From contig JBMNJT010000002.1 in NCBI GenBank assembly GCA_050951805.1, positions 896,001 through 960,000 of the forward strand: a stretch of DNA of 64,000 nt, written 5' to 3'. Shown one piece after another: positions 17,082 to 53,228 of the stretch. Each line of letters opens with the position of its first letter. Positions within the stretch are counted from its first letter, which is position 1. Both the position numbers and the translations under genes were made by a program. The DNA is from Bacillota bacterium. GTDB lineage: Bacteria > Bacillota > DTU025. The notes below the pieces were generated by a model. That model was given only the letters and a program-made list of their open reading frames with translations, had not been told where the DNA came from and did not search any database.

Positions 17082-17111
17082 TCCAGGGAATAGCATAGGG
17101 CTTTTGGCTAT

Positions 17112-17162
17112 GCGCGGGGCGGGCCGAGGCCTTCCTCAGGCCTCTCGGCCCGCGCCTCGTTT
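17112..17162 (+). terminator. GC-rich intercistronic hairpin after the binding-protein gene
   Basis: GCGGGGCGGGCCGAG...CTCGGCCCGCGCCTCGT. Confidence 0.5.
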
Positions 17163-17186
17163 CCCAAAGAACACCGGAAAGCATAG

Positions 17187-18374: not shown

Positions 18375-18381
18375 GTGAGTA

Positions 18382-19377: not shown

Positions 19378-19384
19378 GCTGAGA

Positions 19385-22646: not shown

Positions 22647-24359
22647 ATGCCGAAAAAGGTACGCTTGCCGATTGTATTGATGTTGGCATTTGCGCTTGCC
22701 GTTGGCCTAGCCGGCGCGCCTGGCGCCGCCAAGGTGGCTTACGAGCCATGGGGCCCCCACGTTGACGAGATTATCATGCCCATTATCAAGGAATCCGAGG
22801 CCCGGAGGATCGCGTTTGAGCGCGGCGAAAGTGTTGTGTGGGCTGGCCTTACCAAGCCTGAGGATATCGATAGGGCGAAGGTCATCACCAATGCTGACAT
22901 GACTATGACTCTTGGTTTTCACATGTTCTACCTTTGCTTCAACATGAGGGAATACCCACTGGCCGACCAAGCTCTCCGTCAGGCTATTGCACACTGCACT
23001 GATCGTGACAACATAATCCGCACGCTCTTCAAGGGCTATATGCTTCCTATGACGAGTTTCATTCCACAGGTGTCGCCTTTCTATAAGGCTGACGTGCCTG
23101 TCTATCCATTCAGTCATGCAAAGGCTGCGGAGGTTCTCGACAAGGCCGGCTACAAGCTCGATCCGGCCACTAAGAAGAGAATCGATCCCAAGACGGGGAA
23201 ACCCATGCGTGAATTGAAGATCTTCACGCCTACGTACGAGGTTGCTCCGACCTCTGCGGAACTTGGCAAAATGATTGCCGATTCATGCCAGAAGGTTGGC
23301 CTTCCCGTCGTGCCCGAGCCGATGGACTTCCCAGTCATGCTCGATAAACTTGACATAATGGAATTCGACATGTACTGCCTGGCCTGGAACCTTAGCAGGA
23401 ACCCAACAAGCCTATACAGCTTCTTCCATTCGTCGCAGGACGTCGAGGCCGGCTACAACAGGCCTGGTATTCGCGATCCCGAGCTAGATAAGCTTCTTGA
23501 GGATCTAAACTATGCCCCAGATCTCAAGACGGCTAAGACTGCATCAGACAAGGCTCAGCTTATTCTCGCCAGGGAGATGCCGTACGTGCCGCTGTATTCG
23601 AGGCCTTTCATTGACGCTTTTAGGAAGGACCTCGTTACCGGATACGTTCCGATGAAGGGCTATGGCGCCGCGAGCTACAACAATATGTGGACAACACTGA
23701 ATATCCGCCGTGTTGACCGGTCCGGCAGGCCGATCGAGGGCGGCACTATCAGGTGGACGTTGGATGAGGAGCCGAAGAACCTCAACCCCTGCGTCGCCAG
23801 CAGCGCCTACGAATGGGAGGTTCTTTCCAGGATCTATGACGGTCTCCAGGCGATGGATCCGGATACCCTGGATGACATGCCGTGGATGGCTCGCAAGTGG
23901 GATGTTGGAGTCTGGGAGCCTGAGCCTGGTAAGAAGGGCACAGTTGTAACTTGGTACATCAATAAGGGCATAAAGTGGTCCGACGGCCAACCGTTCACCG
24001 CTGAGGATGTCAAGTTCACTATGGATTACCTCAAGGCAAACCAGGTGCCGAGGTACAAGCCCACTACTGATGATGTTGTGAAGGTCGAGCTGATCGACAG
24101 ATACACTGTTAAGATCTACTACCAAAACGTAAGTTACTGGCACCTATATCGTGTCGCCGAATTCCTGCCGAAGCACATATGGCAGGATGTAAAGGACTGG
24201 AAGACATTCGAACCTTGGAAGGAACCTCACCCAAAGATCAAGGGTTACTCTAAGCTGGTTGGACATGGTCCATACATCCTCAAGGAGTATAGGCCTGGCG
24301 AATACGTGAGGCTCGTAAAGAACCCGAACTACTGGCGTCTCAACCCTCCGAGCAAGTAG
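22647..24359 (+). CDS. Family-5 ABC substrate-binding protein, circularly permuted (copy 1)
   Basis: FNMR..LRQAIAH block precedes GGTIRW..EEPKNLNP, WSDGQPFTAEDVKFT and GPY..KNPNYW. Confidence 0.92.
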   Translation: MPKKVRLPIVLMLAFALAVGLAGAPGAAKVAYEPWGPHVDEIIMPIIKESEARRIAFERGESVVWAGLTKPEDIDRAKVITNADMTMTLGFHMFYLCFNMREYPLADQALRQAIAHCTDRDNIIRTLFKGYMLPMTSFIPQVSPFYKADVPVYPFSHAKAAEVLDKAGYKLDPATKKRIDPKTGKPMRELKIFTPTYEVAPTSAELGKMIADSCQKVGLPVVPEPMDFPVMLDKLDIMEFDMYCLAWNLSRNPTSLYSFFHSSQDVEAGYNRPGIRDPELDKLLEDLNYAPDLKTAKTASDKAQLILAREMPYVPLYSRPFIDAFRKDLVTGYVPMKGYGAASYNNMWTTLNIRRVDRSGRPIEGGTIRWTLDEEPKNLNPCVASSAYEWEVLSRIYDGLQAMDPDTLDDMPWMARKWDVGVWEPEPGKKGTVVTWYINKGIKWSDGQPFTAEDVKFTMDYLKANQVPRYKPTTDDVVKVELIDRYTVKIYYQNVSYWHLYRVAEFLPKHIWQDVKDWKTFEPWKEPHPKIKGYSKLVGHGPYILKEYRPGEYVRLVKNPNYWRLNPPSK

Positions 24360-24607: not shown

Positions 24608-24779
24608 CAACCTTTTGGGCATGGCGATGGGCTAAAAAGAGTTATCGCCGCAAAGTTGTCTTCTCCCACCTGCAGGGATTGTTGGGCCATCGATTCGAAT
24701 CACACGACGCATATGTCGCAAAGTGACGAGAACTGATACCCATGCAATCAAATTAACATTTCAAGGAGGTACGTACTTA

Positions 24780-26486
24780 ATGCCGAAAAAAGTTCGCTTG
24801 CCGATTGCCGTAGTCTTGGCGCTCGTGCTTGCTCTCGGCATCGCCGGCGCGCCCGGCGCCGCGAAGATGGCGTTCGAGACCACTGGTCCGCACGTCGACG
24901 AGATCATTATGCCGATCATAAAGGAGCAGCAAGCCAGAAGAATCGCATATGAGCGTGGTGAAAGCGTCGTCTGGTCTGGCCTCACTCAGCCTGAGGATAT
25001 CGACAGGGCTAAGGCCATGCCTAACTCCGACATGACGATGACTCTTGGTTTCCACATGTTCTACCTTTGCTTTAACATGAGGAAGGAGCCGTTGGCTTCT
25101 CAACCGATCCGCCAGGCGATTGCACACTGTGTCGATCGCGATAACATCATTCGCACGCTCTTCAAGGGCTATATGCTTCCGATGACGAGTTTTGTGCCAC
25201 AGGTGTCGCCTTTCTATAAGGCCGATGTTCCTGTCTATCCATTCAGCTATGCTAAGGCTGCTGAGGTTTTGGATAAGGCCGGATACAAGCTGGATCCTGT
25301 GACCAAGGTGAGGATCGATCCGAAGACGGGCAAACCGCTTGCCCAGATGAAGATCTTCACGCCTACCTACGAGGTAGCCGCGACCTCCGCGGAACTCGGC
25401 AAGATGATCGCTGATTCCTGCCAGAAGGTTGGTCTGCCTGTGGTGCCAGAGCCAATGGACTTCCCAGTCATGCTCGACAAGATCGATATTCGCGATTTTG
25501 ACATGTATGTCCTGGCATGGTCGCTCAGCAGGAACCCAGACTTCCTGTATGACTTCTTCCATTCGTCACAGGACGTCGAAGCTGGCTACAATAACCCGGG
25601 AATGCGTAATCCTGAGTACGACAAACAGTCTGAGCTTCTCAGGTACGCGTCTAACTTGAAAGAGGCCAAAGCGGCGTCAGACGCCTGCCAGATGATCCTT
25701 GCCAGAGAGATGCCGTACGTGCCGCTCTACTCGAGGCCGTACATCGATGCGTTCCGCAAGGACCTGGTAACAGGATACGTGCCCATGAAGGGCTTCGGCG
25801 CAGCTAGCTACAACAACCTGTGGACCACCTTGAACATACGTAGGGTGGACCGTTCAGGCAGGCCCATTGAAGGCGGAACCATCAGGTGGGCGCTTTCAGA
25901 GGAGCCGAAGAACCTCAACCCGTGTGTCGCGTCAAGCGCCTACGAGCAGGAAGTGCTCTCAAGGTTGAATGACAGCCTGATGGCAATGCATCCTGACACT
26001 CTCGATGATATGCCATGGATGGCCCGCAAGTGGGACGTTGGCGTATGGGAGCCGCAGCCCGGCAAGAAGGGCACCACGGTGACCTGGTATATCGAGAAGG
26101 GGATCAAGTGGTCTGACGGAATGCCGTTCACCGCTGAGGATGTAGAATTCACCATCAACTACCTCAAAGCGAATAAGGTTCCGAGGTATCTCCCTGCGAC
26201 GCAGGACATCGTCAAGGTTGAGCTGCTCGACAAATACACGGTCAAGGTCTACTTCGCCAACGTCAGCTACTGGCACATCTACAGTGCAGACCTGTCCTTC
26301 CTGCCTAAGCACATCTGGAAGGATGTAAAGGACTGGAAGGGCTTCGAGCCTTGGAAGGAGCCGCACCCGAAGATTAAGGGTTACTCCAAACTTGTTGGAA
26401 CGGGACCCTTCATTCTTAAGGAATACGTGCCCGGCGAATATGTAAGGCTCGTTAAGAACCCGAACTACTGGCGTCTGAAGAAGTAG
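24780..26486 (+). CDS. Family-5 ABC substrate-binding protein, circularly permuted (copy 2, tandem paralog)
   Basis: Same permuted motif order; highly similar to 22647-24359; AAGGAGG RBS. Confidence 0.92.
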   Translation: MPKKVRLPIAVVLALVLALGIAGAPGAAKMAFETTGPHVDEIIMPIIKEQQARRIAYERGESVVWSGLTQPEDIDRAKAMPNSDMTMTLGFHMFYLCFNMRKEPLASQPIRQAIAHCVDRDNIIRTLFKGYMLPMTSFVPQVSPFYKADVPVYPFSYAKAAEVLDKAGYKLDPVTKVRIDPKTGKPLAQMKIFTPTYEVAATSAELGKMIADSCQKVGLPVVPEPMDFPVMLDKIDIRDFDMYVLAWSLSRNPDFLYDFFHSSQDVEAGYNNPGMRNPEYDKQSELLRYASNLKEAKAASDACQMILAREMPYVPLYSRPYIDAFRKDLVTGYVPMKGFGAASYNNLWTTLNIRRVDRSGRPIEGGTIRWALSEEPKNLNPCVASSAYEQEVLSRLNDSLMAMHPDTLDDMPWMARKWDVGVWEPQPGKKGTTVTWYIEKGIKWSDGMPFTAEDVEFTINYLKANKVPRYLPATQDIVKVELLDKYTVKVYFANVSYWHIYSADLSFLPKHIWKDVKDWKGFEPWKEPHPKIKGYSKLVGTGPFILKEYVPGEYVRLVKNPNYWRLKK

Positions 26487-33867: not shown

Positions 33868-34064
33868 TAGTTGTAACTCCTTTCTCTGATAAACCTGGTT
33901 TGGAAGGGGGCGATCTTCCAGACTAACGATGTATTCGTCAAAGAAAGGGGAATTTCCCGTTGGGAAGTGATGGGAAAAGCGACTTGGTGCGACATTGACA
34001 ATGTTGCATTTCAGTGAAATAGTTGGCGTACAGCCACTTTCATGGACAAAGGATGGTGCTGGAA

Positions 34065-34883
34065 ATGGCGTACAAGGCGCCTGCGGAAATAGCGAAGACT
34101 GTTGTCGACTCTTCAGTGACCAAAGCGAACGCAGATTTTGTAACCCTGGTGGCGCTGGGATTTCTTGCTGGAAGTTTCATAGCGATAGCTGGGGCGACAT
34201 CCCATACTGTCTCTTTGGCTCTCGGGCCCTGGGCCGGACCGGGAATAATTCGCTTCATATCAGGCCTCATATTCACAGTTGGGATAACAATGGTCATAAT
34301 AGGTGGAGCTGAACTTTTCACCGGGAACTCGCTGATGGTTGCAGGGCTTTTGGAAGGGCGCATTACCATTGTTCAACTCCTCCGAAACTGGGTCCTAGTC
34401 TACCTGAGCAATTTCGTTGGCGCCCTCTTTGTTGCATGGCTCTATTACAAGACAGAACTTTGGGCTGCTCCGGGACTGGAAATCGCCGAAGGCTTTGTTA
34501 ACACAGCCATAGCAAAGGCCAACATTGAATTTGGAACGGGGTTTGCAAGGGGAATCCTATGCAATTGGCTGGTATGTATGGGTGTTTGGATGTCCTATGC
34601 TGCTGACGATGTGACCGGCAGAGTCATACCAACGGCGATGGCAGTTGCCGCTTTCGTGATGTGTGGCGCTGAGCATTCGGTGGCGAACATGTTCTACATG
34701 CCGGTAGGTTTCATGATTCGCGCGCGTATCAGTGGATTGCCTGCCCTCTCCATGTTGCCAAATCTGGTTTCTGTGACATTGGGGAACGTAGTGGGAGGAG
34801 GCTTATTGGTTGCGACTGTGTACTGGGTTGCATACCTTCGTAAGAGCTCATCGCCTAAACGTGTAAGCCCTGGCCGGAACTGA
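34065..34883 (+). CDS. Formate/nitrite transporter (FNT) family channel
   Basis: GAELFTGN, GILCNWLVC, EHSVANMF. Confidence 0.93.
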   Translation: MAYKAPAEIAKTVVDSSVTKANADFVTLVALGFLAGSFIAIAGATSHTVSLALGPWAGPGIIRFISGLIFTVGITMVIIGGAELFTGNSLMVAGLLEGRITIVQLLRNWVLVYLSNFVGALFVAWLYYKTELWAAPGLEIAEGFVNTAIAKANIEFGTGFARGILCNWLVCMGVWMSYAADDVTGRVIPTAMAVAAFVMCGAEHSVANMFYMPVGFMIRARISGLPALSMLPNLVSVTLGNVVGGGLLVATVYWVAYLRKSSSPKRVSPGRN

Positions 34884-39323: not shown

Positions 39324-39364
39324 GGTGTTTAGTGCTTCTAAGGGTTAGTGAGTGGTGGTGTCAT

Positions 39365-41446
39365 ATGCCAGGACAGAATGCTCTGAATAGAGCCGCTGAA
39401 TCTGCTGACCGCGCGCAACCCTCGCTTGACGAAAAAGGGGTTGCGCGATTCACAAATGTAGGGGCGCTATTGCTCAGAATTGTAGTGATAGTAACATGCA
39501 TCATGTTCTTGCTAAGAACTCTGTCGATCCAACCAGCAATTATCATAACCATTGTGCCTGCAATAGCGACGGTCGCTGGTTTCAATTCTATAGGCGGCAA
39601 ACACGGGTATTATGTGGCAAGTATTCTTGCCACACTATTCGATCTTATTCTGATTTCCGCTACTGTCTTTGCAACAGGCGGCATTGACAGCGAGGCTTTC
39701 CTTCTGTATTTTCTCGAGATTGTGGTTTTGTCTCTCAATATCGGTTCTGCGCGATGCGTAGCAGCGGGGATGGGCTGTGCGGGCCTTTACTCGGTGGCCA
39801 CATGGGCTTCATGGGCCAACACGCCCGAGACCAGCTGGATTCTTCTGTACAGGTGTGGCCTTTTCATGCTTGTCGGCTGTGGCGTAGGGCGGCTTTCCAA
39901 GGCCTATCAGGCCTCATTGGAGATGGTGGCTGTGGAGCATGAGAGGGCACGCAAGCGGGACCTCTGGGATCGCACTTTGGCTAATCTTGCCCGGGCAATC
40001 AATTCAGGGCTGGACCTGCATGCCGTGTTGGAAGTGGTGGTCGATGGTGGCCTCGATGTTCTCGAAGCTGAGGCTGGGATGATCGCTGTTGTTGACAAGC
40101 AGGGTCGAACCGTGGCAGAAGCTTGTCGCGCTCTGCCTCCAGATTTTTGCGGCTCTGTGCTCGAACCAGGGCGGGGTGCAATTGGACTCGCCATTGAGTC
40201 TCGGAAGACTGTTGGCATATTGGATTATCAGAAGTTCGATAGAGCTCTGCCTGAAGTACGCGACATGGGGCTTGCCTCTGTTGTGGCTGCTCCGATATTG
40301 ATGGGCTCAGATGTGATTGGCGGTCTAGCGTTTGGCCATACCGTGCTGGGTATGACCTGCACCGAAGAGGAATGCGAGTTTCTGGAGATTCTGGCCAGGC
40401 AGTTGGGCGTTGTTCTGGGAAACGCGCGTTTCTTGGAGGAAGCCAGGCGGAGGGCGGATTACCTGTCCACAATCAATGAGATATCAAAGAGCTTCGCTTC
40501 GGTATTAGAGCCCGAGGTTCTCTTCGAGAAGATCTATCGTGAAGTGCGCCGCATTGTTCCTATGGAAGCGTTCTTCGTAGCCATATATGTTCCTCAGAGG
40601 CGAGAAGTAGAGATAGTTTTCTTGGTGGACGACGGAAAGCGGTGTCCGCCTACGCGTTTCAAGTTGGATGAAGGACCTACTTCGAGAGTCATAATGTCTG
40701 GGCAGCCATTCGTCATTCAGCTGGAGGATGAGGATGACATCGAGGACGCCAAATGGATGGGACACAAACCTGACCCGACGCGATCCGGGATTATTGTGCC
40801 TATGAGGGTAGGGCCACACGTTATAGGCGCTTTATCTGCGCAAAGCTACACGCCGGATGCGTACGGTGAAGAGGAGATAGAGCTCCTCACCACGATTGCG
40901 GCGAGCGCCGCAATAGCTTTAGAAAACGCACGGCTTTACCAAACGGCGCGCGAGCTTTCGCTCACCGATGACCTTACCGATCTTGGGAACTACAGGTTTT
41001 TCTGCAATGCATTGGAAAGAGAGATCGAGAGAGCTAAACGTAATGGGGGTCCGTTGTCCCTGGTAATGATGGACTCTGACAGCCTGAAGTACATAAACGA
41101 TAGGTATGGACACGCCATTGGCGACATGCACTTGATACACCTGGCTGAAACGATGAAGGCAATATCGCGCAAGTCTGATATTCTGGCGAGATATGCGGGC
41201 GATGAGTTCATGATAATACTCCCCAATACCAAGAAGGAAGATGCTAGTGTAATGGCCGAACGCCTTCGGACGCGGATCGAGAATTCGCCGCTGTCTGTTG
41301 ACGGGTCGCCGGTGGTTGCAACTGTGAGCGTTGGGGTCGCTTCTTACCCGGAGGCGGGATCCACTGTGGACGAGCTTGTCAGCGCTGCGGATGCCGCCAT
41401 GTACACGGCGAAACGGCAGGGGAAGAACAGGGTAGTCTGTGTCTGA
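39365..41446 (+). CDS. Membrane-bound GAF-GAF diguanylate cyclase (copy 1)
   Basis: TM N-terminus; two GAF domains; LTDDLT.L.N, INDRYGHAIGD, RKSD...RYAGDEF, AKRQGKNRV. Confidence 0.92.
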   Translation: MPGQNALNRAAESADRAQPSLDEKGVARFTNVGALLLRIVVIVTCIMFLLRTLSIQPAIIITIVPAIATVAGFNSIGGKHGYYVASILATLFDLILISATVFATGGIDSEAFLLYFLEIVVLSLNIGSARCVAAGMGCAGLYSVATWASWANTPETSWILLYRCGLFMLVGCGVGRLSKAYQASLEMVAVEHERARKRDLWDRTLANLARAINSGLDLHAVLEVVVDGGLDVLEAEAGMIAVVDKQGRTVAEACRALPPDFCGSVLEPGRGAIGLAIESRKTVGILDYQKFDRALPEVRDMGLASVVAAPILMGSDVIGGLAFGHTVLGMTCTEEECEFLEILARQLGVVLGNARFLEEARRRADYLSTINEISKSFASVLEPEVLFEKIYREVRRIVPMEAFFVAIYVPQRREVEIVFLVDDGKRCPPTRFKLDEGPTSRVIMSGQPFVIQLEDEDDIEDAKWMGHKPDPTRSGIIVPMRVGPHVIGALSAQSYTPDAYGEEEIELLTTIAASAAIALENARLYQTARELSLTDDLTDLGNYRFFCNALEREIERAKRNGGPLSLVMMDSDSLKYINDRYGHAIGDMHLIHLAETMKAISRKSDILARYAGDEFMIILPNTKKEDASVMAERLRTRIENSPLSVDGSPVVATVSVGVASYPEAGSTVDELVSAADAAMYTAKRQGKNRVVCV

Positions 41447-41705
41447 CCTTGAGACTATCCATGTGGTTGAAAGCTAAATCAGCTTTGATGTTATCGGCTT
41501 GCCAGGGCTGTGGAAGAGATATGAAGGCGTATCGGGCCTTCACTGCTCCAATGCCAAACATTAACTTCCATTTCAATGTCGCAACGATGTTGCTGAGGTC
41601 GTGCGCCCTTCCATTGCAGCCAGCTCGTTGAGGGTCACCAGTCGAATAAATCCCGACGAGCCCTCCACAGAAGGTGTTTACCTCTTCCAAGAGGAGTGGT
41701 GCCAT

Positions 41706-43787
41706 TTGCCGGGACAGATTGATCCGAATAGAGTCGCTGAATCTGCTGACTGGGCTGAACCTACAGCCCCAGAGAAGGGGATTGTGCGATTTGCTTATGT
41801 AGAGGTGCTGTTCCTCAGGATTGTAGTAATAGCATTATGCATCATGCTCTTGCTAGCAACCTCTTCGATCAAACCGGCAACTGTCGTAGCCATTGCGTTT
41901 GCAATAGCGACGACGGTTGGGTTCAGTGCTATCGGCAACAAGCATGGATACTCGGTGGCAAGTGCTCTTGCCACAGTATTCGATCTTATTCTGATTTCGG
42001 CTACTGTCTTCGCAACAGGCGGTACGTTCAGCGAAGCGTTCCTGCTGTATCTCCTCGAAATTGTAGTTTCCTCTTTCAATACCGGCCTAGCGCAATCTAC
42101 AGTTGTAGGAATCGCATGCGCTGGACTATACTTTCTATCCGCTGAAGCTTCGCAGGCGAACGTTGCCGATATCAGCTGGATTCTTCTGTACAGGTGTGGC
42201 CTTTTCATGCTTGTTGGTTGCGGCGTAGGGCAGCTTTCCAAGGCCTATCAGGGTTCATTGGAGATGGCGACTGTGGAGCATGAGAGGGCACGCAAGCGGG
42301 ACCGTTGGGATCGCACTTTAGCTGATCTCGCCCGGGCAGTCAATTCAGGGCTGGAATTGCAGGCCATGTTGGAAGCGATAATCGATGATGGCCTCGATGT
42401 TCTCGAAGCTGAGGCCGGGATGATCGCTGTCGTTGACGAGCACGGTCGAACTGTGGCAGAAGCTTGTCGCGCTCTGCCCCCAGGCTTTTGCGGCTCTGTA
42501 CTCGAACCAGGGCGGGGTGGAATCGGACTCGCGATTGAGTCTCGAAGGACTGTTGGCATATCCGACTATCAGAAATTCGATAAAGCTCTGCCTGAAGTGC
42601 GCGACATGGGGATTGCCTCTGTTGTGGCTGCTCCGATATTGATGGGCTCAGATGTGATTGGCGGTCTAGCGTTTGGCCATACCGTGCTGGGTATGACCTG
42701 CACCGAAGAGGAATGCGAGTTTCTGGAGATTCTGGCCAGGCAGTTGGGCGTTGTTCTGGGAAACGCGCGCTTATTGGAGGAGGCAAGGCGGAGGGCGGAT
42801 TACCTGTCCACAATCAATGAGATATCAAGGAGCTTCGCTTCGGTATTAGAGCCGGAGGCTCTCTTCGAGAAGATCTATTGCGAAGTCAGGCGTGTTATAC
42901 CCATGGAGTTCTTCTTTGTGGCTACTTATCATCCTCAAGAACGCGAGGTGAAGGTAGCGTTTATGATGGACGAAGGCAAGCGATGTCCGCCTACGCGTTT
43001 CAAATTGGACGATGGGCCCACTTCCAAAGTTATAATGACTGGGCAGCCATTCATCATTCAGCTGGAGGATGAGGATGACATCGAGGACGCCAAATGGATG
43101 GGACACAAACCTGACCCGACGCGATCCGGGATTATTGTGCCTATGAGGGTAGGGCCACACGTTATAGGCGTAATATCTACACAAAGCTACACGCCGGATG
43201 CGTACGGTGAAGAGGAGATAGACCTCCTCACCACGATTGCGGCGAGCGCCGCAATAGCTTTAGAAAACGCACGGCTTTACCAAACGGCGCGCGAGCTTTC
43301 GCTCACCGATGACCTTACCGATCTTGGGAACTACAGGTTTTTCTGCAATGCATTGGAAAGAGAGATCGAGAGAGCTAAACGTAATGGGGGTCCGTTGTCC
43401 CTGGTAATGATGGACTCTGACAGCCTGAAGTACATAAACGATAGGTATGGACACGCCATTGGCGACATGCACTTGATACACCTGGCTGAAACGATGAAGG
43501 CAATATCGCGCAAGTCTGATATTCTGGCGAGATATGCGGGCGATGAGTTCATGATAATACTCCCCAATACTAAGAAGGAAGATGCTAGTGTAATGGCCGA
43601 ACGCCTTCGGACGCGGATCGAGAATTCGCCGCTGTCTGTTGACGGGTCGCTGGTGGTTGCAACTGTGAGCGTTGGGGTCGCTTCTTACCCGGAGGCGGGA
43701 TCCACTGTGGACGAACTTGTCAGAGCTGTGGATGCCGCCATGTACAAGGCGAAACGGCAGGGGAAGAACAGGGTGGTTTGTGTCTGA
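41706..43787 (+). CDS. Membrane-bound GAF-GAF diguanylate cyclase (copy 2)
   Basis: Same length and architecture as copy 1, offset 2341 bp. Confidence 0.92.
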   Translation: MPGQIDPNRVAESADWAEPTAPEKGIVRFAYVEVLFLRIVVIALCIMLLLATSSIKPATVVAIAFAIATTVGFSAIGNKHGYSVASALATVFDLILISATVFATGGTFSEAFLLYLLEIVVSSFNTGLAQSTVVGIACAGLYFLSAEASQANVADISWILLYRCGLFMLVGCGVGQLSKAYQGSLEMATVEHERARKRDRWDRTLADLARAVNSGLELQAMLEAIIDDGLDVLEAEAGMIAVVDEHGRTVAEACRALPPGFCGSVLEPGRGGIGLAIESRRTVGISDYQKFDKALPEVRDMGIASVVAAPILMGSDVIGGLAFGHTVLGMTCTEEECEFLEILARQLGVVLGNARLLEEARRRADYLSTINEISRSFASVLEPEALFEKIYCEVRRVIPMEFFFVATYHPQEREVKVAFMMDEGKRCPPTRFKLDDGPTSKVIMTGQPFIIQLEDEDDIEDAKWMGHKPDPTRSGIIVPMRVGPHVIGVISTQSYTPDAYGEEEIDLLTTIAASAAIALENARLYQTARELSLTDDLTDLGNYRFFCNALEREIERAKRNGGPLSLVMMDSDSLKYINDRYGHAIGDMHLIHLAETMKAISRKSDILARYAGDEFMIILPNTKKEDASVMAERLRTRIENSPLSVDGSLVVATVSVGVASYPEAGSTVDELVRAVDAAMYKAKRQGKNRVVCV

Positions 43788-44805: not shown

Positions 44806-44843
44806 TGATATAATGAACCTGTGCATGATGCAGTTGCGCATTA
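44806..44843 (+). promoter_or_regulatory. Extended -10 box and putative autoregulatory operator of the activator gene
   Basis: TGaTATAAT at 44806-44814; TGATGCagttgcGCATTA at 44826-44843. Confidence 0.55.
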
Positions 44844-44867: not shown

Positions 44868-47489
44868 TTGCAGGTCATCGTAGAACGGGCTGAGAGATGT
44901 AGAAGATGTCATGTTTGTGTTACGGCGTGCCCTGTTGGGGCTATAGTCATCAGCAGTGGCGAGGTTCGGTTGAGGCGCGACCTGTGCATCGCCTGTGGGC
45001 AATGTGTGAAGGCCTGTCCCAACGGCGCACTGGCCATTAGGGATCAGGGCGAGGATGTAATGGCCCTCATAGGGAATGGACGCACTGTCGCGATATTGGA
45101 TCCTAGTTTTCCGGGGGCTTTTCCTCAATCCGATCCGCTCTGCCTAATTGGCGCCCTCAGAGAGCTGGGTTTCAGCTCTATATGGGAGGCATCGTTCGGC
45201 GCTGAGTCCCTGCTTCCGTACTACGCCGACTATGTGAAGGCACATTCGGAGGAATCGGGCCGGTCGGTTGCGTTTGCATCTATGTGCCCTGCTGTAGTTG
45301 CCTTTATTGAACATTGCCGTCCTGAGCTTGCTGGTAATCTAGTCCCTCTTGTTTCTCCAACTGTAGCCGCGTCTCGTGTGGCTAGGGCTTTGGGGGAAAA
45401 GAGGGTCGTTTTTATTGGTCCATGTCCTGCAGAAAAACTTGAAGCCGGTTTTGGGGGCGTGCCCGGAGGGCCGAATATTGCGATTACTTATGCAGAATTA
45501 TCGCGTTTGCTTGATAATGTAGGAGTATCTGTGGATCAATGCCCTGCCTCGCTTCCTGATGTAAGGGCAAGCGGCGCTGGTCGCATGCTTGGATTGCCGG
45601 CGGGGTTGCTTCGGGCCCTCAGAATTAGGGATGATGTTGCGCCGCCCGGCATCTTGCTTGCAGAAGGCAAAGAAGAGTGCCTGAAACTGGTGGAAGCTTC
45701 GCTGTCGGGTGCATTAGGCGGTTCATTTGTCGTAGCATCGATCTGCCGTAGCTGCGTGGATGGGACTGGTTTTCCAGAAGGTGCTTCTTTGTGGGATAGA
45801 AGGAGAGCCGTGGTTGACTACATTAAGGAAGCAAGTTCTGTGGGCAGCATGGAAGTGGATGGCGCTTTGCGCGCTGTGTCTGCGTCAGCCGATTTCAAGA
45901 GGCGTTACTTGCCTAGAAAGATTCCTCTCGCGCCAAAAGAGACTGATGTGCGCACGGCGTTGCTCGGCATGGGAATGAGGAGCCCGGAGGACGAACTAGA
46001 CTGCGGGCTATGCGGATTCCAGTCCTGCCGCGAAAGGGCAATTGCGGTGGCGCGAGGGACGACTGAGGCCAGTGAGTGTTTTCCGCGCAGGAATGCAAGG
46101 TTATCTGAGGAATGTGCCCGTCTGAGTCAGCTTGCGTCCGACCTTGATTCAATCGTAAATACTTCCTGCGAGATCTCCTATGTCTGCGATCCGGATGGCT
46201 GGATAGTAAGGGCAAGCAGAGCGGCTAACGACATTATCGGTGTAGAGAATGCGAATCTGCACAAGGTTAACATGAAGAATCTTCCTCGCAGACTATGCCC
46301 TGATGTTGCGATCCAGGCTTTGCACGAGGTCAAGCGAGTGATGGCCATTAGGGATTTGCCAGGCGGGCATAGGTTGCTTGCGGCGGCCTCCCCCATACTT
46401 GATGGCGACGGGGCCTGTAGAGGCGTTGCGGCGACGATAACGGATCTGAGCGGGGCAGCCTTGGAGATCAATACAACTCCCACGGCCAGCAGCTTCGCGA
46501 CTGACGCTGATTCCGAGGACATGGTAGCCTACAGTCCTGCTATGGAAGAGCTCCTCACCTTAGTTCATAAAGTAGCCAACGTATCGTCAACTGTGCTTAT
46601 TACCGGAGAGTCTGGCGTGGGCAAAGAGGTTGTGGCGAGGTATATTCATAGGACGGGAAACAGGGCATCGGGGCCTTTTGTCAAGATAAACTGCGCTGCA
46701 ATACCACATACGCTTCTTGAGTCAGAGTTGTTCGGGTATGAGGAAGGGGCCTTTACTGGAGCACGGAAGAGCGGCAAGCCTGGTCTAATCCAACTGGCTT
46801 CTGGAGGCACTCTTTTTCTAGATGAGATTTCAGAGATGCCCCTGGGAATCCAAGCCAAGCTTCTTCAAGTTCTGCAGGAAAAATGTCTTGTCCGAGTGGG
46901 CGGTACTGAGCAAATCAGGGTGGATGCGCGGATCATGGCAGCCACAAATAGGGATCTGAGGGCTGCGGTGAAAGAGGGACGGTTCCGTGGAGATCTCTAC
47001 TTCAGACTCAATGTCATACCTATCCGGGTTCCGCCACTTAGGGAGAGATCTGGCGATATCGCGCCTCTAACCTATCACTTTATTGAAAAGTGGGATAGCA
47101 GATACGGGCGGAATCATCAGATTTCACGGGAGGCCTGCTCGCTTTTGGAATGCTATAGATGGCCTGGCAACGTTAGGGAACTCGAGAATCTTATAGAGTT
47201 TCTTGTAGTTACTGTTGATGACCCCGTTATCCTGCCTGAACATCTTCCACAGCACGTTGTGGCAGGGGAGGGCGAGAGAGATGTCCAGGTGAGCGTGTCA
47301 GGGATCATGCCTCTCCGTCAGGCTGTGGAGGAAGTTGAACGCCAGCTGATTGCTCTCGCCGCTGAAGCATGCTCTACCACCTATTCCATGGCCAAAGCTT
47401 TGGGGGTTAACCAGTCGACTGTAGTGAGAAAAATGCAGAAGTACATGGAGACTCCCGAGGAGGAGGCAGAGGAGACCGGGAACGTGTAA
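44868..47489 (+). CDS. Sigma-54-dependent activator with 2[4Fe-4S], [FeFe]-hydrogenase-like, FeS, PAS, AAA+ and HTH domains
   Basis: CRRCHVCVTACP, CIACGQCVKACP, SMCP, GPC, LDCGLCGFQSC, GESGVGKE, GAFTGA, FLDEI, WPGNVRELEN, C-terminal HTH. Confidence 0.92.
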   Translation: MQVIVERAERCRRCHVCVTACPVGAIVISSGEVRLRRDLCIACGQCVKACPNGALAIRDQGEDVMALIGNGRTVAILDPSFPGAFPQSDPLCLIGALRELGFSSIWEASFGAESLLPYYADYVKAHSEESGRSVAFASMCPAVVAFIEHCRPELAGNLVPLVSPTVAASRVARALGEKRVVFIGPCPAEKLEAGFGGVPGGPNIAITYAELSRLLDNVGVSVDQCPASLPDVRASGAGRMLGLPAGLLRALRIRDDVAPPGILLAEGKEECLKLVEASLSGALGGSFVVASICRSCVDGTGFPEGASLWDRRRAVVDYIKEASSVGSMEVDGALRAVSASADFKRRYLPRKIPLAPKETDVRTALLGMGMRSPEDELDCGLCGFQSCRERAIAVARGTTEASECFPRRNARLSEECARLSQLASDLDSIVNTSCEISYVCDPDGWIVRASRAANDIIGVENANLHKVNMKNLPRRLCPDVAIQALHEVKRVMAIRDLPGGHRLLAAASPILDGDGACRGVAATITDLSGAALEINTTPTASSFATDADSEDMVAYSPAMEELLTLVHKVANVSSTVLITGESGVGKEVVARYIHRTGNRASGPFVKINCAAIPHTLLESELFGYEEGAFTGARKSGKPGLIQLASGGTLFLDEISEMPLGIQAKLLQVLQEKCLVRVGGTEQIRVDARIMAATNRDLRAAVKEGRFRGDLYFRLNVIPIRVPPLRERSGDIAPLTYHFIEKWDSRYGRNHQISREACSLLECYRWPGNVRELENLIEFLVVTVDDPVILPEHLPQHVVAGEGERDVQVSVSGIMPLRQAVEEVERQLIALAAEACSTTYSMAKALGVNQSTVVRKMQKYMETPEEEAEETGNV

Positions 47490-47647
47490 TGCGTTTGGGC
47501 ATTAATCGATGCGACACAGCATTAAGCTTTGCAAAGGCAAGCAGAGTAAGATAATATAGGCCGTGAGCAGGGATGTCGTGCGGACAAACGAAGGAGACAT
47601 GTGGGCACAAATGTGAAAAGGATCACGACTGATGCACAAGCGCATTA
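47487..47647 (+). promoter_or_regulatory. Three putative upstream activator sites (ATGC-N6-GCATTA) and a Rex/Crp-like box
   Basis: Sites at 47487-47504, 47507-47524, 47630-47647; ATGTGAAAAGGATCACGA at 47611-47628. Confidence 0.65.
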
Positions 47648-47699: not shown

Positions 47700-47715
47700 T
47701 GGCATGGAATATGCA
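47700..47715 (+). promoter_or_regulatory. Sigma-54 (-24/-12) promoter of the hydrogenase operon
   Basis: TGGCATGGAATATGCA, correct GG-N10-GC spacing; adjacent to the activator gene. Confidence 0.8.
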
Positions 47716-47763: not shown

Positions 47764-48258
47764 ATGGGTTGCTGTGAATCCAAGTGCGTCGGCGATATCA
47801 CGCCTGAGCAGTGGGCTCAGGTAGATGGGACAATCGCCAAGTACAAGGGCCAGCGCGGAATCTTGATCCCGTGTCTGCACGAGATTCAAGAAGTGGTGGG
47901 CTACCTTCCCCTGGAGGTTCAGGAGAGGGTGGCTGCGGGACTCAATGTTCCGTTGGCTGACGTCTATAGCGTCGTTACCTTCTACGCGCTGTTTTCCACC
48001 AAGCCCAAGGGCAAACATCAGGTAGGAGTCTGCCTGGGAACAGCGTGCTACGTGCGTGGAGGCGACAAGATTCTCGAAAAGGTAGAACAGGCGCTGGGGA
48101 TCAAGGCTGGAGACACAACTGATGACAGGATGTTCTCGATTCAGGTGATGAGGTGTATTGGCGCCTGCGGTCTTGGCCCAGTCATGACGGTTGATGATGA
48201 CATCTATGCGCGCATCAAGCCCGACCGCGTGGCTGAGGTTTTGGCGAAGTATTCCTGA
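47764..48258 (+). CDS. hydC: [FeFe]-hydrogenase gamma subunit (NuoE-like, 2Fe-2S)
   Basis: [27 protein letters not shown]. Confidence 0.93.
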
Positions 48259-48296
48259 TAAGGATGGCAGAGCAAGGGAACGAGGGAGGAATACGA

Positions 48297-51200
48297 ATGG
48301 ATTTGGTTAGAGCGCACGTCCTTGTTTGCGGCGGCGCAGCCTGTGTGTCCTCCGGGTGTGCAGAGGTTCGCGAGGCTCTGGAGGCTGAAATAGCCGCGAA
48401 AGGCATTGGGCGCGAGATTAAAGTTGTCGTCACAGGATGCATGGGACCATGCGATCTTGGTCCGATAATCGTTGTTTATCCTGAAGGCGTTCTTTACTGC
48501 AATTGTACGCCTGATGATGCCAGGGAGATAGTTGATGAGCATCTTGTGAAAGGCAGGATTGTAAGTCGACTCCTTTATGAGGAACCGATGACATCGGAAA
48601 AGGTGGAAACTCAGGAAGGCATGACTTTCTTCAGCCGGCAGGAACGAATAGCTCTCCGAAACACCGGAGTAATCGATCCGCTGGAGATAGATGAGTATAT
48701 TGCCAGAGACGGTTATGCCGCCTTGGGCAAGGCTCTTACAGAGATGACGCCTGACGATGTAGTCGATGTGATAAAGCGTTCGGGCCTCAGGGGCCGGGGT
48801 GGCGCTGGGTTCCCCACAGGGACTAAGTGGCTGCTGACAGCCAAGGCGCCGGGTTCTCCAAAATACGTGGTGTGTAATGCGGACGAGGGAGACCCAGGTG
48901 CTTTCATGGACAGGTCAGTGCTGGAAGGCGATCCCCATGCAGTGCTGGAGGCCATGACGATTGCAGGCTATGCGGTTGGTGCAAACCAGGGCTATATATA
49001 CGTAAGGGCAGAGTATCCTTTGGCCGTTGAGCACCTGCAACATGCGATAGGACAAGCGCGCGAATACGGCTTGCTGGGCAAGGATATTCTCGGATCGGGA
49101 TTCGATTTCGATATCGACCTCCGGGTTGGGGCAGGCGCTTTTGTGTGCGGTGAGGAAACCGCTCTTCTGGCGTCTATAGAGAGTCGGCGAGGCGAGCCGA
49201 GGCCGAGGCCTCCATATCCTGCTCAGTCAGGTCTGTGGGGGCAGCCGACGTTGATAAACAACGTTGAAACATATGCCAACATTGCGCCGATTATTCTCAA
49301 AGGCCCAGAATGGTTTTCATCTATCGGGACCGAAAAGAGCAAGGGCACAAAGGTATTTGCTCTTGCAGGCAAGATAAACAACACGGGACTTGTGGAAGTC
49401 CCGATGGGGACGCCACTGGGCGACATTATCTTCGACATAGGCGGAGGCATCCCCAATGGCAAGAAGTTCAAGGCCGCACAGACCGGAGGTCCCTCCGGAG
49501 GATGCATCCCTGCTCAGTATCTAAACACACCCATCGATTACGAATCCCTGAAAGAACTGGGCACGATGATGGGCTCAGGAGGGCTCATTGTCATGGATGA
49601 GGACACCTGTATGGTTGACCTCGCTAAGTTCTTCATGCAATTCATACAGGATGAGTCATGCGGGAAATGTGCGCCTTGTCGGATAGGCACCAAGCGGATG
49701 CTTGAGATCCTCGATCGCATAACTAAGGGACAGGGTAGGGAAGGCGACGTCGAGCTCCTGATGGAACTGGGAGAGCAGATCATGGCTACTGCCATGTGTG
49801 GCCTGGGACAGAGCGCTCCCAACCCGGTTTTGTCCACAATTCGCTACTTCCGCGATGAGTATGACGCTCACATCAAAGACCACAAGTGCCCGGCGTCATC
49901 GTGCGCGGCACTCTTCTACTCCCCGTGCCAGAACTCATGCCCTGCTGATGTAGATGTGCCTCGCTACATTGCTCTGATAAAGGAACGGAAGTTCGCTGAA
50001 GCGGCTGCGCTGATCCGTTCCAAGAACCCGTTCCCCGCTATCTGTGGGCGGGTCTGCGACCACCCGTGCGAATCCAAGTGCAGACGTGCTACATTCGACG
50101 AGCCTGTAGCGATCAAGTCTCTCAAGAGATTTGCTGCGGATTGGGAGAAGAAACATGGCGTGTCACCTGTGGCGGAGCACAAGCCGCCGACAGGGAAACG
50201 CGTTGCAATAGTGGGTGCCGGTCCCGCGGGCCTTAGCGCCGCCTACTATCTCGCACTAGCCGGGCACAAGGTTACTGTGTTCGAGGCTTTGCCTGTCGCC
50301 GGCGGCATGCTGGCTGTAGGGATCCCCGAGTACAGGCTCCCCAAGGATATCTTGGAATGGGAAATCGAGGTAATCAAGAAGGCAGGCGTGGAGATACGAA
50401 CAAATACCCGGATCGGAGAAGACATAAAACTTGACGAGTTGTCATCGAAATACGATGCCTTGTTCATAGCGGTTGGTGCTCATAATGAAGTGAAGATGGA
50501 CGTTCCCGGGGAGGATTTCGAAGGAGTCATGCCTGCAGTGGCTTTCCTCCGAGATGTGGCGCTCGGCAAGCCTGTTCAGGTGGGAAAGAAGGTGGCGGTC
50601 GTTGGCGGCGGAAACGCTGCGATCGATGCGGCTCGCACGGCGCGGCGAATGGGCGCCGAAGAGGTTCACATCCTTTACCGCAGACTCCGGGCGGATATGC
50701 CTGCTGATGCAGGCGAGATTGAGGCTGCCGAGGAAGAGGGCATCCACATCCACTACCTAACCGCCCCTACCAGGATCATTGGCCGGGACGGGAAGGTGGC
50801 TCAGATCGAGTGCGTCAGGATGAAGCTTGGCGAGTTCGACAAGTCGGGTAGAAGGCGCCCAATTCCTGTGGATGCATCGCGCACGATAGTCGACATCGAT
50901 ACCGTCATACCCGCTATTGGGCAGGCAGTCGACACATCGTTCATAATGCCGCTGTCTGATACGGGAGAAAGTCTCTTTACGACGAAATCGGGCTTGCTCA
51001 TCACGGACCCTGATTCGTTGGAGACCAATGTTCCCGGGATCTTTGCGGGCGGGGATTGCGTGACGGGACCATGGAGTGTCGTGGCTGCGATTGGCGCAGG
51101 ACGCGAGGCAGCATACAGCATAGACAGGTTTCTCGGGGGCGATGCCTGGATTGGAGCTCATGCCGAAATCGAGCGCTGCTTAGTCGGCGAACCGATCGAG

Positions 51201-51344
51201 GAGGAGTGCAAGCGTTGTCCGATGCCGGAATTGCCCGTCTCTGAGCGCGCAAGGAACTTCAAGGAAGTCGAACTTGGATTCACAGAGGACATGGCGGTGG
51301 CGGAAGCTGCTCGCTGCTTCCAGTGTGACGTCCGCGAGCCGTAA
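48297..51344 (+). CDS. hydB: [FeFe]-hydrogenase beta subunit (NuoF-like) fused to a GltD/NfnB-like FAD/NAD(P)H oxidoreductase
   Basis: [41 protein letters not shown]; then [39 protein letters not shown]. Confidence 0.92.
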
Positions 51345-51370
51345 GACCACGAGAATGGAGTGTGATAGGA

Positions 51371-53107
51371 ATGGGTGATGTTACTCTCACCATTGACGGA
51401 CGGCAAGTCACTGTCCCGGAAGGCACGAGCGTTCTCGAGGCCGCAGCACAGGCGGGCGTCAATATCCCCAGCCTCTGCTACCTCAAGGACATAAATGAGA
51501 TAGGTTCGTGCAGAGTGTGTGTAGTCGAAATAGAAGGGGCCAGAGCTCTGGCAGCGTCGTGTGTAACCCCTGCCGCCGACGGTATGGTAGTACATACCAA
51601 CACCAAACGCGTGCGGGAGGCGCGTCGCGCAGTGCTGGAGCTTATCATATCTAACCATCCTTTCGAGTGCCTCACGTGCGTCAGAAGCGGGTCCTGCGAG
51701 CTGCAGAGCCTTGCCGAGGCAACGGGCATTAGGGAGATAAGGTTTGAAGGCGCAAAATCGGAGCATCCCGTGGATGATACCACCCCATCGATAGTTCGGG
51801 ATCCAAGTAAGTGCATCCTGTGCCGAAGGTGCGTGTCGGTCTGCGAGAAAGTGCAGGGGGTGTCCGCTCTCGGACTTGCAGGGCGAGGATTCGACTCCGT
51901 GGTGAGCCCCGCCGGCCAGCTGCCGTTGAATGAGGCGGCATGTGCCCTCTGTGGGCAGTGTGTTCTTGTGTGTCCAACTGGAGCGCTGTCAGAAGTGGAC
52001 TCCACAGGCGCGGTCTGGGAAGCGCTGGGAGATCCGAAGAAGCATGTGGTGGTGCAGACTGCGCCAGCTATTAGAGTCGCGTTGGGTGAGGAGTTCGGAG
52101 CGGCTCCGGGCTCGATAGTTACTGGGCAAATGGTTGCGGCACTGCGCGCCCTCGGCTTCGACAAGGTGTTTGACACCAACTTCACGGCCGACCTCACGAT
52201 ACTTGAGGAAGGCAACGAGCTGTTGCACAGGCTTTCGGAAGGCGGCAAGCTGCCGATGATCACATCGTGCAGTCCGGGATGGATAAAGTTCATAGAGCAT
52301 TTCTACCCCGACATGCTTGACCACCTGTCTACATGCAAGTCGCCACAGCAGATGTTCGGAGCGCTAGCGAAAACCTACTATGCTGAAAAGGCTGGCATAG
52401 ACCCGAAAGACATGTTCGTGGTGTCGATAATGCCTTGCACGGCAAAGAAGTTTGAGTGCACAAGGCCTGAAATGAGGTCGTCGGGATACCAGGATGTCGA
52501 CGCAGTACTTACCACAAGGGAACTGGCGCGCATGCTGCGCGAGATAGGCGTAGACCCGATGGAGTTGGAACCTGAAGAATACGACGCTCCGCTGGGAATC
52601 GGAACAGGAGCTGCCGTGATCTTCGGAGCCACCGGAGGGGTCATGGAGGCTGCTCTGAGAACCGTATACGAAGTGGTGACAGAGAAGGAACTCGAGTCTG
52701 TCGATTTCACCGATGTCAGAGGCTTTGAGGGCATAAAGGAAGCCGAAGTCGATCTCGATGGCACAGTGGTACGCGTCGCGGTCGCTCATGGCCTTGGCAA
52801 TGCTCGAAAGCTTCTGGACAGGGTTAAATCGGGCGAGGCGTCGTACGAGTTCATCGAGATCATGGCATGCCCAGGAGGGTGCATCGGCGGCGGCGGACAG
52901 CCTATTGGAACAAATACCGAGAGGCGTCTCGAGAGGATCGATGGAATATATGAGGCAGACCGTGAGTTGCCGCTCAGGAAGTCTCATGAGAATCCGGCAG
53001 TGAAGGCCTTGTACGAGGAGTTCCTTGGAGAGCCGTTGGGAGAGAAGTCCCACGAGCTGCTGCATACCCACTATACGCCGCGTGGCAGATGGCACTGGGC
53101 TGAGTAG
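51371..53107 (+). CDS. hydA: [FeFe]-hydrogenase catalytic subunit, group A
   Basis: H-cluster motifs TSCSPGW, MPCTAKKFE, EIMACPGGCIGGGGQP; N-terminal 2Fe-2S, His-ligated and 2[4Fe-4S] motifs. Confidence 0.97.
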   Translation: MGDVTLTIDGRQVTVPEGTSVLEAAAQAGVNIPSLCYLKDINEIGSCRVCVVEIEGARALAASCVTPAADGMVVHTNTKRVREARRAVLELIISNHPFECLTCVRSGSCELQSLAEATGIREIRFEGAKSEHPVDDTTPSIVRDPSKCILCRRCVSVCEKVQGVSALGLAGRGFDSVVSPAGQLPLNEAACALCGQCVLVCPTGALSEVDSTGAVWEALGDPKKHVVVQTAPAIRVALGEEFGAAPGSIVTGQMVAALRALGFDKVFDTNFTADLTILEEGNELLHRLSEGGKLPMITSCSPGWIKFIEHFYPDMLDHLSTCKSPQQMFGALAKTYYAEKAGIDPKDMFVVSIMPCTAKKFECTRPEMRSSGYQDVDAVLTTRELARMLREIGVDPMELEPEEYDAPLGIGTGAAVIFGATGGVMEAALRTVYEVVTEKELESVDFTDVRGFEGIKEAEVDLDGTVVRVAVAHGLGNARKLLDRVKSGEASYEFIEIMACPGGCIGGGGQPIGTNTERRLERIDGIYEADRELPLRKSHENPAVKALYEEFLGEPLGEKSHELLHTHYTPRGRWHWAE

Positions 53108-53191: not shown

Positions 53192-53228
53192 GGGGGCACG
53201 CCAGTTGACGTGCCCCCTCTTAGTTTTG
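53192..53228 (+). terminator. Terminator after hydA
   Basis: GGGGGCACG-ccagttga-CGTGCCCCC then T-rich. Confidence 0.65.

Follow-up and report, generated by a model that had tools for sequence, protein, structure and literature searches.

The DNA analyzed here was a 64,000-nucleotide stretch from a Bacillota bacterium (GTDB lineage DTU025; assembly GCA_050951805.1, contig JBMNJT010000002.1, positions 896,001 to 960,000), which we refer to as the window and number from its first letter. Positions 44868 to 47489 on the forward strand carried an unbroken open reading frame (ORF) with a TTG start that encoded an 873-residue protein. Pfam matches indicated that this protein, referred to here as the regulator, joined a group C (HydS-type) hydrogenase-like sensor and a sigma54 enhancer-binding protein in one chain. 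Predicted operator boxes, a predicted sigma54 promoter, and the genes of an [FeFe] hydrogenase followed it.

The domains of the regulator, all on the forward strand, began with a ferredoxin domain for two [4Fe-4S] clusters (44898 to 45017; two Pfam Fer4 matches and alignment), in which eight of eight cysteines (Cys) were present. The hydrogenase domain (H-domain; 45084 to 45764) matched Fe_hyd_lg_C over residues 73 to 299 (E value, 3e-27), and Pfam, alignment, and a structural model gave C140, C186, C293, and C296 as the ligands of its cubane cluster. A C-terminal Fe-S domain (PF04060, residues 377 to 406; 45996 to 46085), which is a hallmark of groups C and D, had four of four Cys. The diverged PAS domain that came next (46140 to 46457, approximate limits) produced a weak Pfam match (E value, 6e-4) that was below the curated cut-off and appeared only when the segment was scanned alone, and the segment could be aligned with the PAS domains of orthologues. 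The output half consisted of a sigma54-interacting AAA+ domain and its lid (46524 to 47276; Sigma54_activat at residues 553 to 719) and an HTH_50 DNA-binding domain (47310 to 47444; Pfam and alignment). Walker A (residue 580), GAFTGA (627), Walker B (649), the Arg-finger region (705), and sensor II (765) were identified in the AAA+ domain. A preliminary description of this DNA had listed the cluster cysteines and the ferredoxin, GAFTGA, and Walker motifs as intact, and this was confirmed, with 16 of 16 Cys in place.

An AlphaFold model of residues 1 to 430 (mean predicted local distance difference test score [pLDDT], 86.9; predicted template modeling score [pTM], 0.83) had the [FeFe]-hydrogenase fold, as indicated by comparisons with CbA5H (Z, 37.9; root mean square deviation [rmsd], 2.8; 348 residues aligned) and CpI 4xdc (Z, 36.6; rmsd, 3.0; 350 residues aligned). 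A structure prediction had been among the checks proposed in the preliminary description. The domain order was that of group C, namely the N-terminal pair of [4Fe-4S] clusters, the H-domain, the C-terminal [4Fe-4S] cluster, and PAS, the last of which was weak. The group A motifs TSCCP/TSCSP, MPCxxKKxE, and ExMACxxGC differed in the regulator, and the best NCBIfam hydrogenase model among the 25 matches listed was B1, at 144 bits compared with a cut-off of 450. In a tree built without TmHydS, the sensor domain nested among kinase-fused and sigma54-fused group C-type sensors (40-row group; Shimodaira-Hasegawa-like approximate likelihood ratio test [SH-aLRT], 97). A pseudogene was considered and rejected because there was no stop or frameshift in the ORF and the branch of the AAA+ domain was among the shortest of its clade (0.17).

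Predicted operator boxes and the downstream operon

The operator pattern TAATGC-N6-GCATTA was picked by eye from the sequence, and RATGC-N6-GCATTA was used as a looser form. Box 1 (47487 to 47504) was a perfect palindrome that overlapped the stop codon of the regulator, box 2 (47507 to 47524) had two mismatches, and box 3 (47630 to 47647) had one mismatch; all box coordinates are given without strand. A predicted sigma54 -24/-12 promoter of the form GG-N10-GC was located on the forward strand at 47700 to 47714, 50 bp ahead of the first hydrogenase gene. The looser pattern was found at four distinct sites (five strand matches) in the window, compared with 0.07 expected, and all five box sites with two mismatches or fewer fell within the two intergenic regions that flank the regulator. 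Just upstream of the regulator start were two overlapping box copies with two and one mismatches (44811 to 44843). These copies make autoregulation possible, and they were not found in the four syntenic orthologues described below. A formate/nitrite transporter gene located about 10 kb upstream of the regulator (34023 to 34883) had no operator box near it in the window scan.

The predicted target operon was also on the forward strand. Its first gene (47764 to 48258; Pfam and NCBIfam) encoded a NuoE/HydC-like [2Fe-2S] subunit, and its second (48264 to 51344) encoded a 1,026-residue protein in which a NuoF/HydB-like flavin mononucleotide subunit was fused to a GltD-like oxidoreductase domain for flavin adenine dinucleotide and NAD(P). 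The third gene (51362 to 53107) encoded the catalytic [FeFe] hydrogenase, HydA, which was assigned to NCBIfam group A6 (936 bits; cut-off, 765) and had the active-site lysine (Lys358 in CpI numbering) intact. A hairpin resembling an intrinsic terminator (53192 to 53217, forward strand) closed the operon. The NuoF-GltD fusion, which was also found in L006, L007, L049, and L008 of the loci compared below and not in L048, suggests an NADP-linked multi-flavin hydrogenase. None of the 49 window ORFs scanned with Pfam was a maturase gene; maturases are presumably encoded in the genome because the catalytic HydA was intact.

The locus was compared with 18 sigma54-fusion loci from GTDB, of which three (L010, L013, and L015) lacked a usable spacer downstream. 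The GTDB scan kept 80 loci of at least 601 stretches and required the C-terminal Fe-S motif, so the counts describe a biased sample. Four of the 18 fusions were directly upstream of a NuoE/NuoF/HydA-A6 operon, and these were from a member of the Firmicutes (L006), Halanaerobium (L007), Halanaerobiales (L048), and Thermovenabulum (L049). Each of the four had a box at the regulator stop codon, more boxes downstream, and a -24/-12 site, which was weaker in L049. The syntenic loci contained two to four boxes with two mismatches or fewer, and at each of them, as in the window, none of 500 shuffles reached the observed count. Of the other sigma54-fusion loci, 10 of 11 had no box and L004 had one. 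The box-bearing orthologues and the regulator had a common, NQSTVVRK-like recognition helix. Thus, the palindromic upstream sites and the -24/-12 promoter that characterize the target operon of an enhancer-binding protein were conserved at four of four syntenic loci. In L048, a gene for the redox repressor Rex (L048:11918-12538) was located after the hydrogenase operon.

The conserved cis-elements, the synteny, and the intact AAA+ and HTH domains suggest that the regulator very probably activates the downstream hydC-hydB(GltD)-hydA operon as a one-component sigma54 protein, and it is from these features that we infer binding and activation. Direct activation of the neighboring operon had been proposed in the preliminary description, and the conserved boxes and promoter argue for it.

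Cofactor pocket of the sensor domain

Pocket positions were numbered by aligning the HydA of the window to CpI, which placed A230-P231-S232, C299-C300, S323-P324-Q325, M353-P354-C355, and K358. The motifs ASMCPAV (C140), GPCPAEKLE (C186 and E189), and ASICRSC (C293 and C296) of the regulator were the counterparts of TSCSPGW, MPCTAKKFE, and EIMACPGGC in HydA; these motif changes, which had been reported previously, proved real in the ORF and the motif alignment. The first Lys of MPCTxKKFE aligned with K358, so E189 was at the K358 position. A register shift around this Lys was rejected, since C186 and E192 were in register and no indel lay between them. The other equivalences were D78 with A230, M139 with C299, C140 with C300, T165 with Q325, and G184 with M353. 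The cubane ligands C140, C186, C293, and C296 corresponded to C300, C355, C499, and C503 of CpI, and the pair in the third motif (P3), like S291 (M497), was mapped via the P3 motif of the window HydA. The earlier reading of the first motif (P1) needed refinement, because the regulator had the canonical cubane Cys there (C300) and it was the window HydA that had Ser. The TSCSP motif of this HydA also occurs in the solved structure of Acetobacterium woodii HydA1.

Several of the changes turned out to be the norm in group C. We aligned 128 group C-type sensor domains, of which 64 were kinase fusions, 23 were stand-alone, and 41 were sigma54 fusions; the last set included the regulator and one duplicate pair, and a near-identical copy of the regulator (P0003) and group A/B matches were left out. 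The CxxC form of P3 was present in 64/64 kinase fusions, 30/41 sigma54 fusions, and 4/23 stand-alone domains, and Gly at M353 was present in 64/64, 29/41, and 23/23, respectively. Met at M497 was found in none of the 128 rows, and Cys at C299 was found in no kinase or sigma54 fusion. Changes at C299, M353, and M497 have been reported in sensory enzymes (Chongdar et al., PMC10055695), and TmHydS, which has A131, G177, and S267 at these positions, still takes up the diiron cofactor (PMC10055695). Because these changes are the group C norm and TmHydS binds the cofactor, we do not regard CxxC or the C299, M353, and M497 changes as degeneracy.

Three other substitutions were of a different kind. 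E189 (codon GAA, 45432 to 45434) replaced the K358-equivalent Lys, D78 (45099 to 45101) replaced the conserved Ala of the diiron cavity (A230), and T165 (45360 to 45362) replaced the family Met in SPM, at the Q325 position that contacts the distal cyanide (CN) ligand; all three were identified by alignment on the forward strand. In addition, the acidic residue of P3, which was acidic in 38/41 sigma54 fusions, was lost in the regulator. Lys358 was kept in 64/64 kinase fusions, 21/23 stand-alone domains, and 26/41 sigma54 fusions, and was lost in the remaining 15/41. Among the 124 rows in which all positions were filled, Ala230 was lost in 17/17 rows without Lys358 (K-less rows) and kept in 106/107 rows with it (K-intact rows). 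The residue that replaced Lys358 varied among the K-less rows (E, F, S, R, A, L, T, or G), and Asp or Glu was at A230 in 8/17 of them, on several branches. In group A enzymes, substitution of K358 is reported to abolish activity and cofactor uptake. Contacts to the distal CN are made by K358, P324, and Q325, with A230 in the wall of the diiron cavity (PMC10147833), and C300 is a cubane ligand, while C299 is the proton-transfer Cys (bioRxiv 2023.06.23.541094). The residues that hydrogen bond to the cofactor are conserved in sensory enzymes (PMC10055695); in the regulator, E189, D78, and T165 stood in place of K358, the Ala of APS, and the last residue of SPx.

The claim of a degenerate H-cluster site thus stood for the K358-to-Glu change, was extended by the A230-to-Asp and SPQ/SPM-to-SPT changes that the preliminary description had missed, and was withdrawn for the CxxC, C299, M353, and M497 changes. 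Judged from the alignments, descent and architecture place the sensor in group C, but three of its cofactor-contacting positions are changed, and the fitting label is that of a group C-derived, hydrogenase-like sigma54 activator and not that of a sensory hydrogenase. One position outside the pocket may behave in a similar way. Residue 55 (45030 to 45032 region), beside the second ferredoxin cluster, was a conserved Lys in K-intact rows; the regulator had Leu there, and 10 other K-less rows had Ile or Arg. Loss of this Lys and loss of the diiron site may go together.

Relatives, sequence conservation, and neighboring genes

Among the rows aligned, the Lys-to-Glu change was present only in the regulator and in P0003, a 99% identical protein that represents an 83-sequence cluster. 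P0003 carried the same Asp, Thr, and Glu, which makes a sequencing error unlikely. The closest full relative, P0004 (52% identity), kept the Lys, Ala, and Met, and four of four syntenic orthologues (L006, L007, L048, and L049) kept Lys358, APS, and SPM. The change is therefore lineage specific and not a family trait, and the idea that it is a conserved family signature was rejected. The preliminary description had suggested aligning orthologues and group C enzymes and had taken canonical orthologues as a sign that the copy was simply decaying. In this alignment, CxxC was common in group C and the Lys-to-Glu change was not conserved, and the Lys kept by P0004 and the syntenic orthologues agreed in part with the sign of decay. 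A search among shorter proteins identified no closer relative (best, 35% identity), a profile search with six sequences added none, a plasmid search returned distant hydrogenases only (<30% identity), and the ESM Atlas returned generic sigma54 regulators only.

We built a sensor tree of 67 rows, from which the trait columns were removed, and an AAA tree of 44 rows, from which five fusions with no matched Walker A were dropped. The regulator, P0004, and P0036 formed a clade in both (SH-aLRT, 99 in the sensor tree and 97 in the AAA tree), and P0036 had lost not only both lysines but also its Fe-S and PAS domains. Two activators outside this set had no H-domain. P0042 had PAS only, and P0054 had a regulator-like recognition helix and ferredoxin and Fe-S domains joined to AAA+, which indicates that a cluster-only sensor arrangement exists. 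Loss of Lys358 required at least four changes on the sensor tree and six on the AAA tree. The alternative that the K-less proteins are one subfamily was rejected by the approximately unbiased test on a 33-row subset (P = 8e-11 for 11 rows and 4e-5 for the 10 sigma54 rows); the grouping of K-less rows in the sensor tree had an SH-aLRT of only 86, and long-branch attraction is possible there.

One K-less clade was clearly maintained. It contained P0066 and seven loci (L010, L011, L012, L013, L019, L023, and L029), six of them from Desulfuromonadales/Geobacterales and one from an unclassified deltaproteobacterium, and it had short branches, with Gly or Ser in place of K358, Gly in place of A230, and CxxxC in P3. 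No [FeFe] HydA was found in the flanks of any of the seven loci. A pseudo-hydrogenase sensor that is under selection is best sought in this Desulfuromonadales-type clade. The K-less fusion was followed in L011 and L012 by a sigma54 promoter and then a P-type ATPase gene, and a PtsP-like gene was close by in L010 and L011. K-less HydS-like genes were also found in Bacteroidota (L044:3719-5599 and L061:3677-5554, both on the reverse strand), with Ala at K358 and Glu at A230. These genes were divergent from a hydrogenase operon that ended in a K-intact sensor kinase, so that one locus holds both an intact sensor and a degenerate one.

Nine of 11 K-intact fusion loci adjoined a hydrogenase; L003 did not, and L015 had no flank. 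The regulator was the only K-less fusion in the sample that was still attached to a hydrogenase operon. The K-intact fusions L001:9001-16594, L002:9001-17529, and L004:1840-7694, from Peptococcaceae and Desulfosporosinus, directly preceded [NiFe(Se)] hydrogenase operons and had a clear -24/-12 sigma54 promoter and no TAATGC-N6-GCATTA box set. In these loci, an [FeFe]-type sensor apparently controls a [NiFe] enzyme.

To compare losses at Cys and at other positions, we used 62 columns that were at least 90% conserved in K-intact rows, a set that is dominated by kinase fusions and includes the Lys at position 189 by construction. The regulator had lost 0/16 Cys and 12/46 other positions (Fisher P = 0.026), and P0004 had lost no Cys and three others. 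When the 17 K-less rows were pooled, although they are not independent, 8/272 Cys were lost compared with 188/782 other positions, and only 1/68 of the H-site cysteines was lost.

Elsewhere in the window, two tandem membrane GAF-GAF-GGDEF genes (39332 to 41446 and 41601 to 43787) were 84% identical, and their C-terminal halves were almost identical, as expected if the pair was recently duplicated or underwent gene conversion; AGDEF takes the place of the GGDEF motif. An oligopeptide ABC operon was preceded by tandem genes for two solute-binding proteins of family 5 (22647 to 24359 and 24723 to 26486), whose Pfam scores were near-equal, and a second oligopeptide ABC operon was located at 15207 to 21374.

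Proposed signal and its rivals

The reading we favor, with a probability of roughly 45%, is that the regulator activates the operon directly, has no diiron cofactor, and is gated by the redox state of its Fe-S clusters. The regulator would bind the three TAATGC-N6-GCATTA boxes and remodel sigma54-RNA polymerase at 47700 to 47714. An ancestor would have sensed H2 via an H-cluster, with the signal relayed through the C-terminal cluster and PAS to AAA+. In the lineage of the regulator, the diiron pocket was probably lost (K358E, A230D, and SPM to SPT), which would leave four [4Fe-4S] clusters only and no H2 binding of its own. The clusters that were kept would gate AAA+ by their redox state, for instance through equilibration with ferredoxin or through oxidative cluster damage, as in OrpR. 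If direct activation and loss of the pocket both hold, we lean toward such gating, which would report cellular reducing power and H2 only indirectly.

The known systems that resemble the regulator differ from it in informative ways. TmHydS (subclass M2f) and the histidine-kinase-fused group C proteins have the same order of ferredoxin, H-domain, C-terminal [4Fe-4S], and PAS domains, and a position next to a catalytic hydrogenase operon is also shared. TmHydS, like the regulator, has Gly at M353, a non-Cys residue at C299, and Ser at M497. Unlike these proteins, the regulator has a fused sigma54 AAA+/HTH output that puts sensing and transcription in one chain, and unlike sensory enzymes generally, it has replacements at K358, A230, and the SPM Met. 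Nar1 probably keeps the lysine. Nar1/CIAO3, which the preliminary description had offered as an analogy, does combine a hydrogenase fold and [4Fe-4S]H cysteines with O2-labile clusters and no diiron cofactor (PMC12621388). The analogy is a loose one: this eukaryotic Fe-S trafficking factor lacks the cofactor because maturases are absent, can also bind a [2Fe-2S] cluster, has no regulator output or group C C-terminal cluster, and has a C-terminal targeting tryptophan (PMC12621388), while the regulator is a bacterial sigma54 fusion that ends in HTH. OrpR of Desulfovibrio vulgaris is likewise a one-component sigma54 activator, and its [4Fe-4S] cluster reads redox potential (PMC8359166). OrpR has one cluster on three PAS Cys and no hydrogenase fold, whereas the regulator has four predicted clusters on a hydrogenase scaffold. 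The PAS domain of the regulator holds several Cys, none of which was conserved in nine orthologues (alignment without OrpR).

Several results weigh against the favored reading. The GG-N10-GC promoter was the only match of its pattern in the window, but 0.98 matches were expected, so it is not above chance when taken alone. The recognition helix also occurred in P0042 and P0054, which have no H-domain, so a paralogue could read the boxes. Three homology searches returned no relatives between 99% and about 59% identity, and thus no conserved Glu-bearing clade. Joint loss of K358 and A230 occurred in four of four independent pairs (P = 0.125), too few for significance. The C-terminal cluster of TamHydS is not reduced under H2 (PMC13104023), which does not fit a simple redox relay. 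Compared with eight outgroups, the sensor half of the regulator had 50 private deviations and that of P0004 had 25 (P = 0.005). The AAA+ and HTH domains had 8 and 10, respectively, and the contrast between the sensor and output halves was not significant (Fisher P = 0.11). Taken together with the Cys counts, these deviations suggest that the output half is under strong constraint, that the clusters are kept, and that the remaining sensor is relaxed. Such erosion fits an Fe-S sensor that does not need a precise pocket, and it fits equally a sensor on its way out.

This last point leads to a close rival, in which the operon is still activated but the sensor is a relic under relaxed selection, its Cys kept for folding, and output is constitutive or depends only on anaerobiosis. 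That the sensor of the regulator erodes twice as fast as that of its sister would be expected under it, as would the varied residues that replace Lys358, since a lost constraint leaves the replacement free. All the syntenic orthologues and P0004 keep the Lys, Ala, and Met; the sister P0036 has dispensed with the Fe-S domain and with PAS, and in P0042 the sole sensor domain is PAS; and OrpR with its sensor deleted is constitutive (PMC8359166). On the other hand, the sensor is about 60% diverged from that of its sister, yet 16/16 Cys and all four domains were retained in an ORF that has no stop or frameshift, and the Desulfuromonadales-type K-less clade is conserved. We consider a signal-blind activator unlikely on balance.

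It is less likely still that the regulator remains an H-cluster-based H2 sensor with a pocket that tolerates the Lys-to-Glu and Ala-to-Asp changes and binds the diiron cofactor with shifted properties. All four H-cluster Cys, including the bridging one, are present in an intact fold, group C pockets can accommodate substitutions that would cripple a group A enzyme (PMC10055695), and the gene still adjoins a hydrogenase operon whose boxes are near perfect, which is not so for the seven Desulfuromonadales-type loci. However, the Lys is invariant in the kinase fusions (64/64), its replacement reverses the charge beside an anionic CN ligand, a second carboxylate is at A230, and the acidic P3 residue found in 38/41 sigma54 fusions is also gone. 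We give the least credence to a different cofactor in the emptied pocket, such as a labile [2Fe-2S] cluster or a metal ion on C296, D78, and E189, through which iron or Fe-S supply would be sensed. An extra O2-labile [2Fe-2S] cluster has been proposed in the same cavity of Nar1 (PMC12621388), and the recurrence of Asp or Glu at A230 in 8/17 K-less rows would suit a ligand. However, E189 is private to the lineage of the regulator, and Asp before Pro is a common helix-capping residue, which would explain the recurrence without a ligand role.

The fusion architecture itself had been catalogued by Nie et al. (2019), whose CFE_2753 and TherJR_2992 have the same Fer4-Fe_hyd_lg_C-FeS sensor joined to a sigma54 activator with GAFTGA (PMC6615313). 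These two proteins are listed with HTH_8 and no PAS, whereas the regulator has HTH_50 and PAS. In the excerpts of that paper, we found no regulon, operator, or H-cluster analysis for them, its main text contained neither tag, and "hydrogenase" appeared there in a figure legend only. Excerpts of papers on Pelobacter, Sporomusa, and pan-bacterial sigma54 regulation (PMC3543383, PMC12456013, and PMC12316311) contained no passage on the sensor-sigma54 family. Searches of an open-access paper library turned up nothing on the operator, on the hydrogenase regulon, or on recurrent Lys loss, although classification papers (Meyer 2007, Calusinska 2010, Greening 2016, Poudel 2016, and Land 2020) may mention such fusions. 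The operator and promoter findings are new here.

We tentatively propose, as something short of an even chance, that one-component H2 sensors built from a group C domain and a sigma54 activator form a family in anaerobes and drive [FeFe] or [NiFe] hydrogenase operons via a palindromic operator, and that cofactor-less Fe-S redox sensors arose from this family repeatedly by coupled loss of Lys358 and Ala230, with the regulator still wired to its operon after exchanging direct H2 sensing for redox sensing. The regulator may sense redox state or O2, as the preliminary description had suggested. A single Lys-to-Glu copy is less remarkable than that description held, and the family it exposed, with a predicted operator and natural K-intact and K-less versions, makes an open question testable. 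The physiological role of sensory group C enzymes has been called unclear and their partners unknown (PMC10055695 and PMC13104023). A protein that senses and activates in one chain, and for which operator, promoter, and target are predicted, leaves no partner to be found, since H2 in and transcription out are measurable with one protein. With the K-intact orthologues, each of which has a predicted operator, H2 sensing by group C enzymes could be tested directly, and natural K-intact and K-less pairs (P0004 or L006 and the regulator) provide a built-in control on the need for the diiron cofactor. In genome surveys, K-less fusions should not count as hydrogenases or H2 sensors, and K-intact fusions are candidate H2 biosensor parts for anaerobes.

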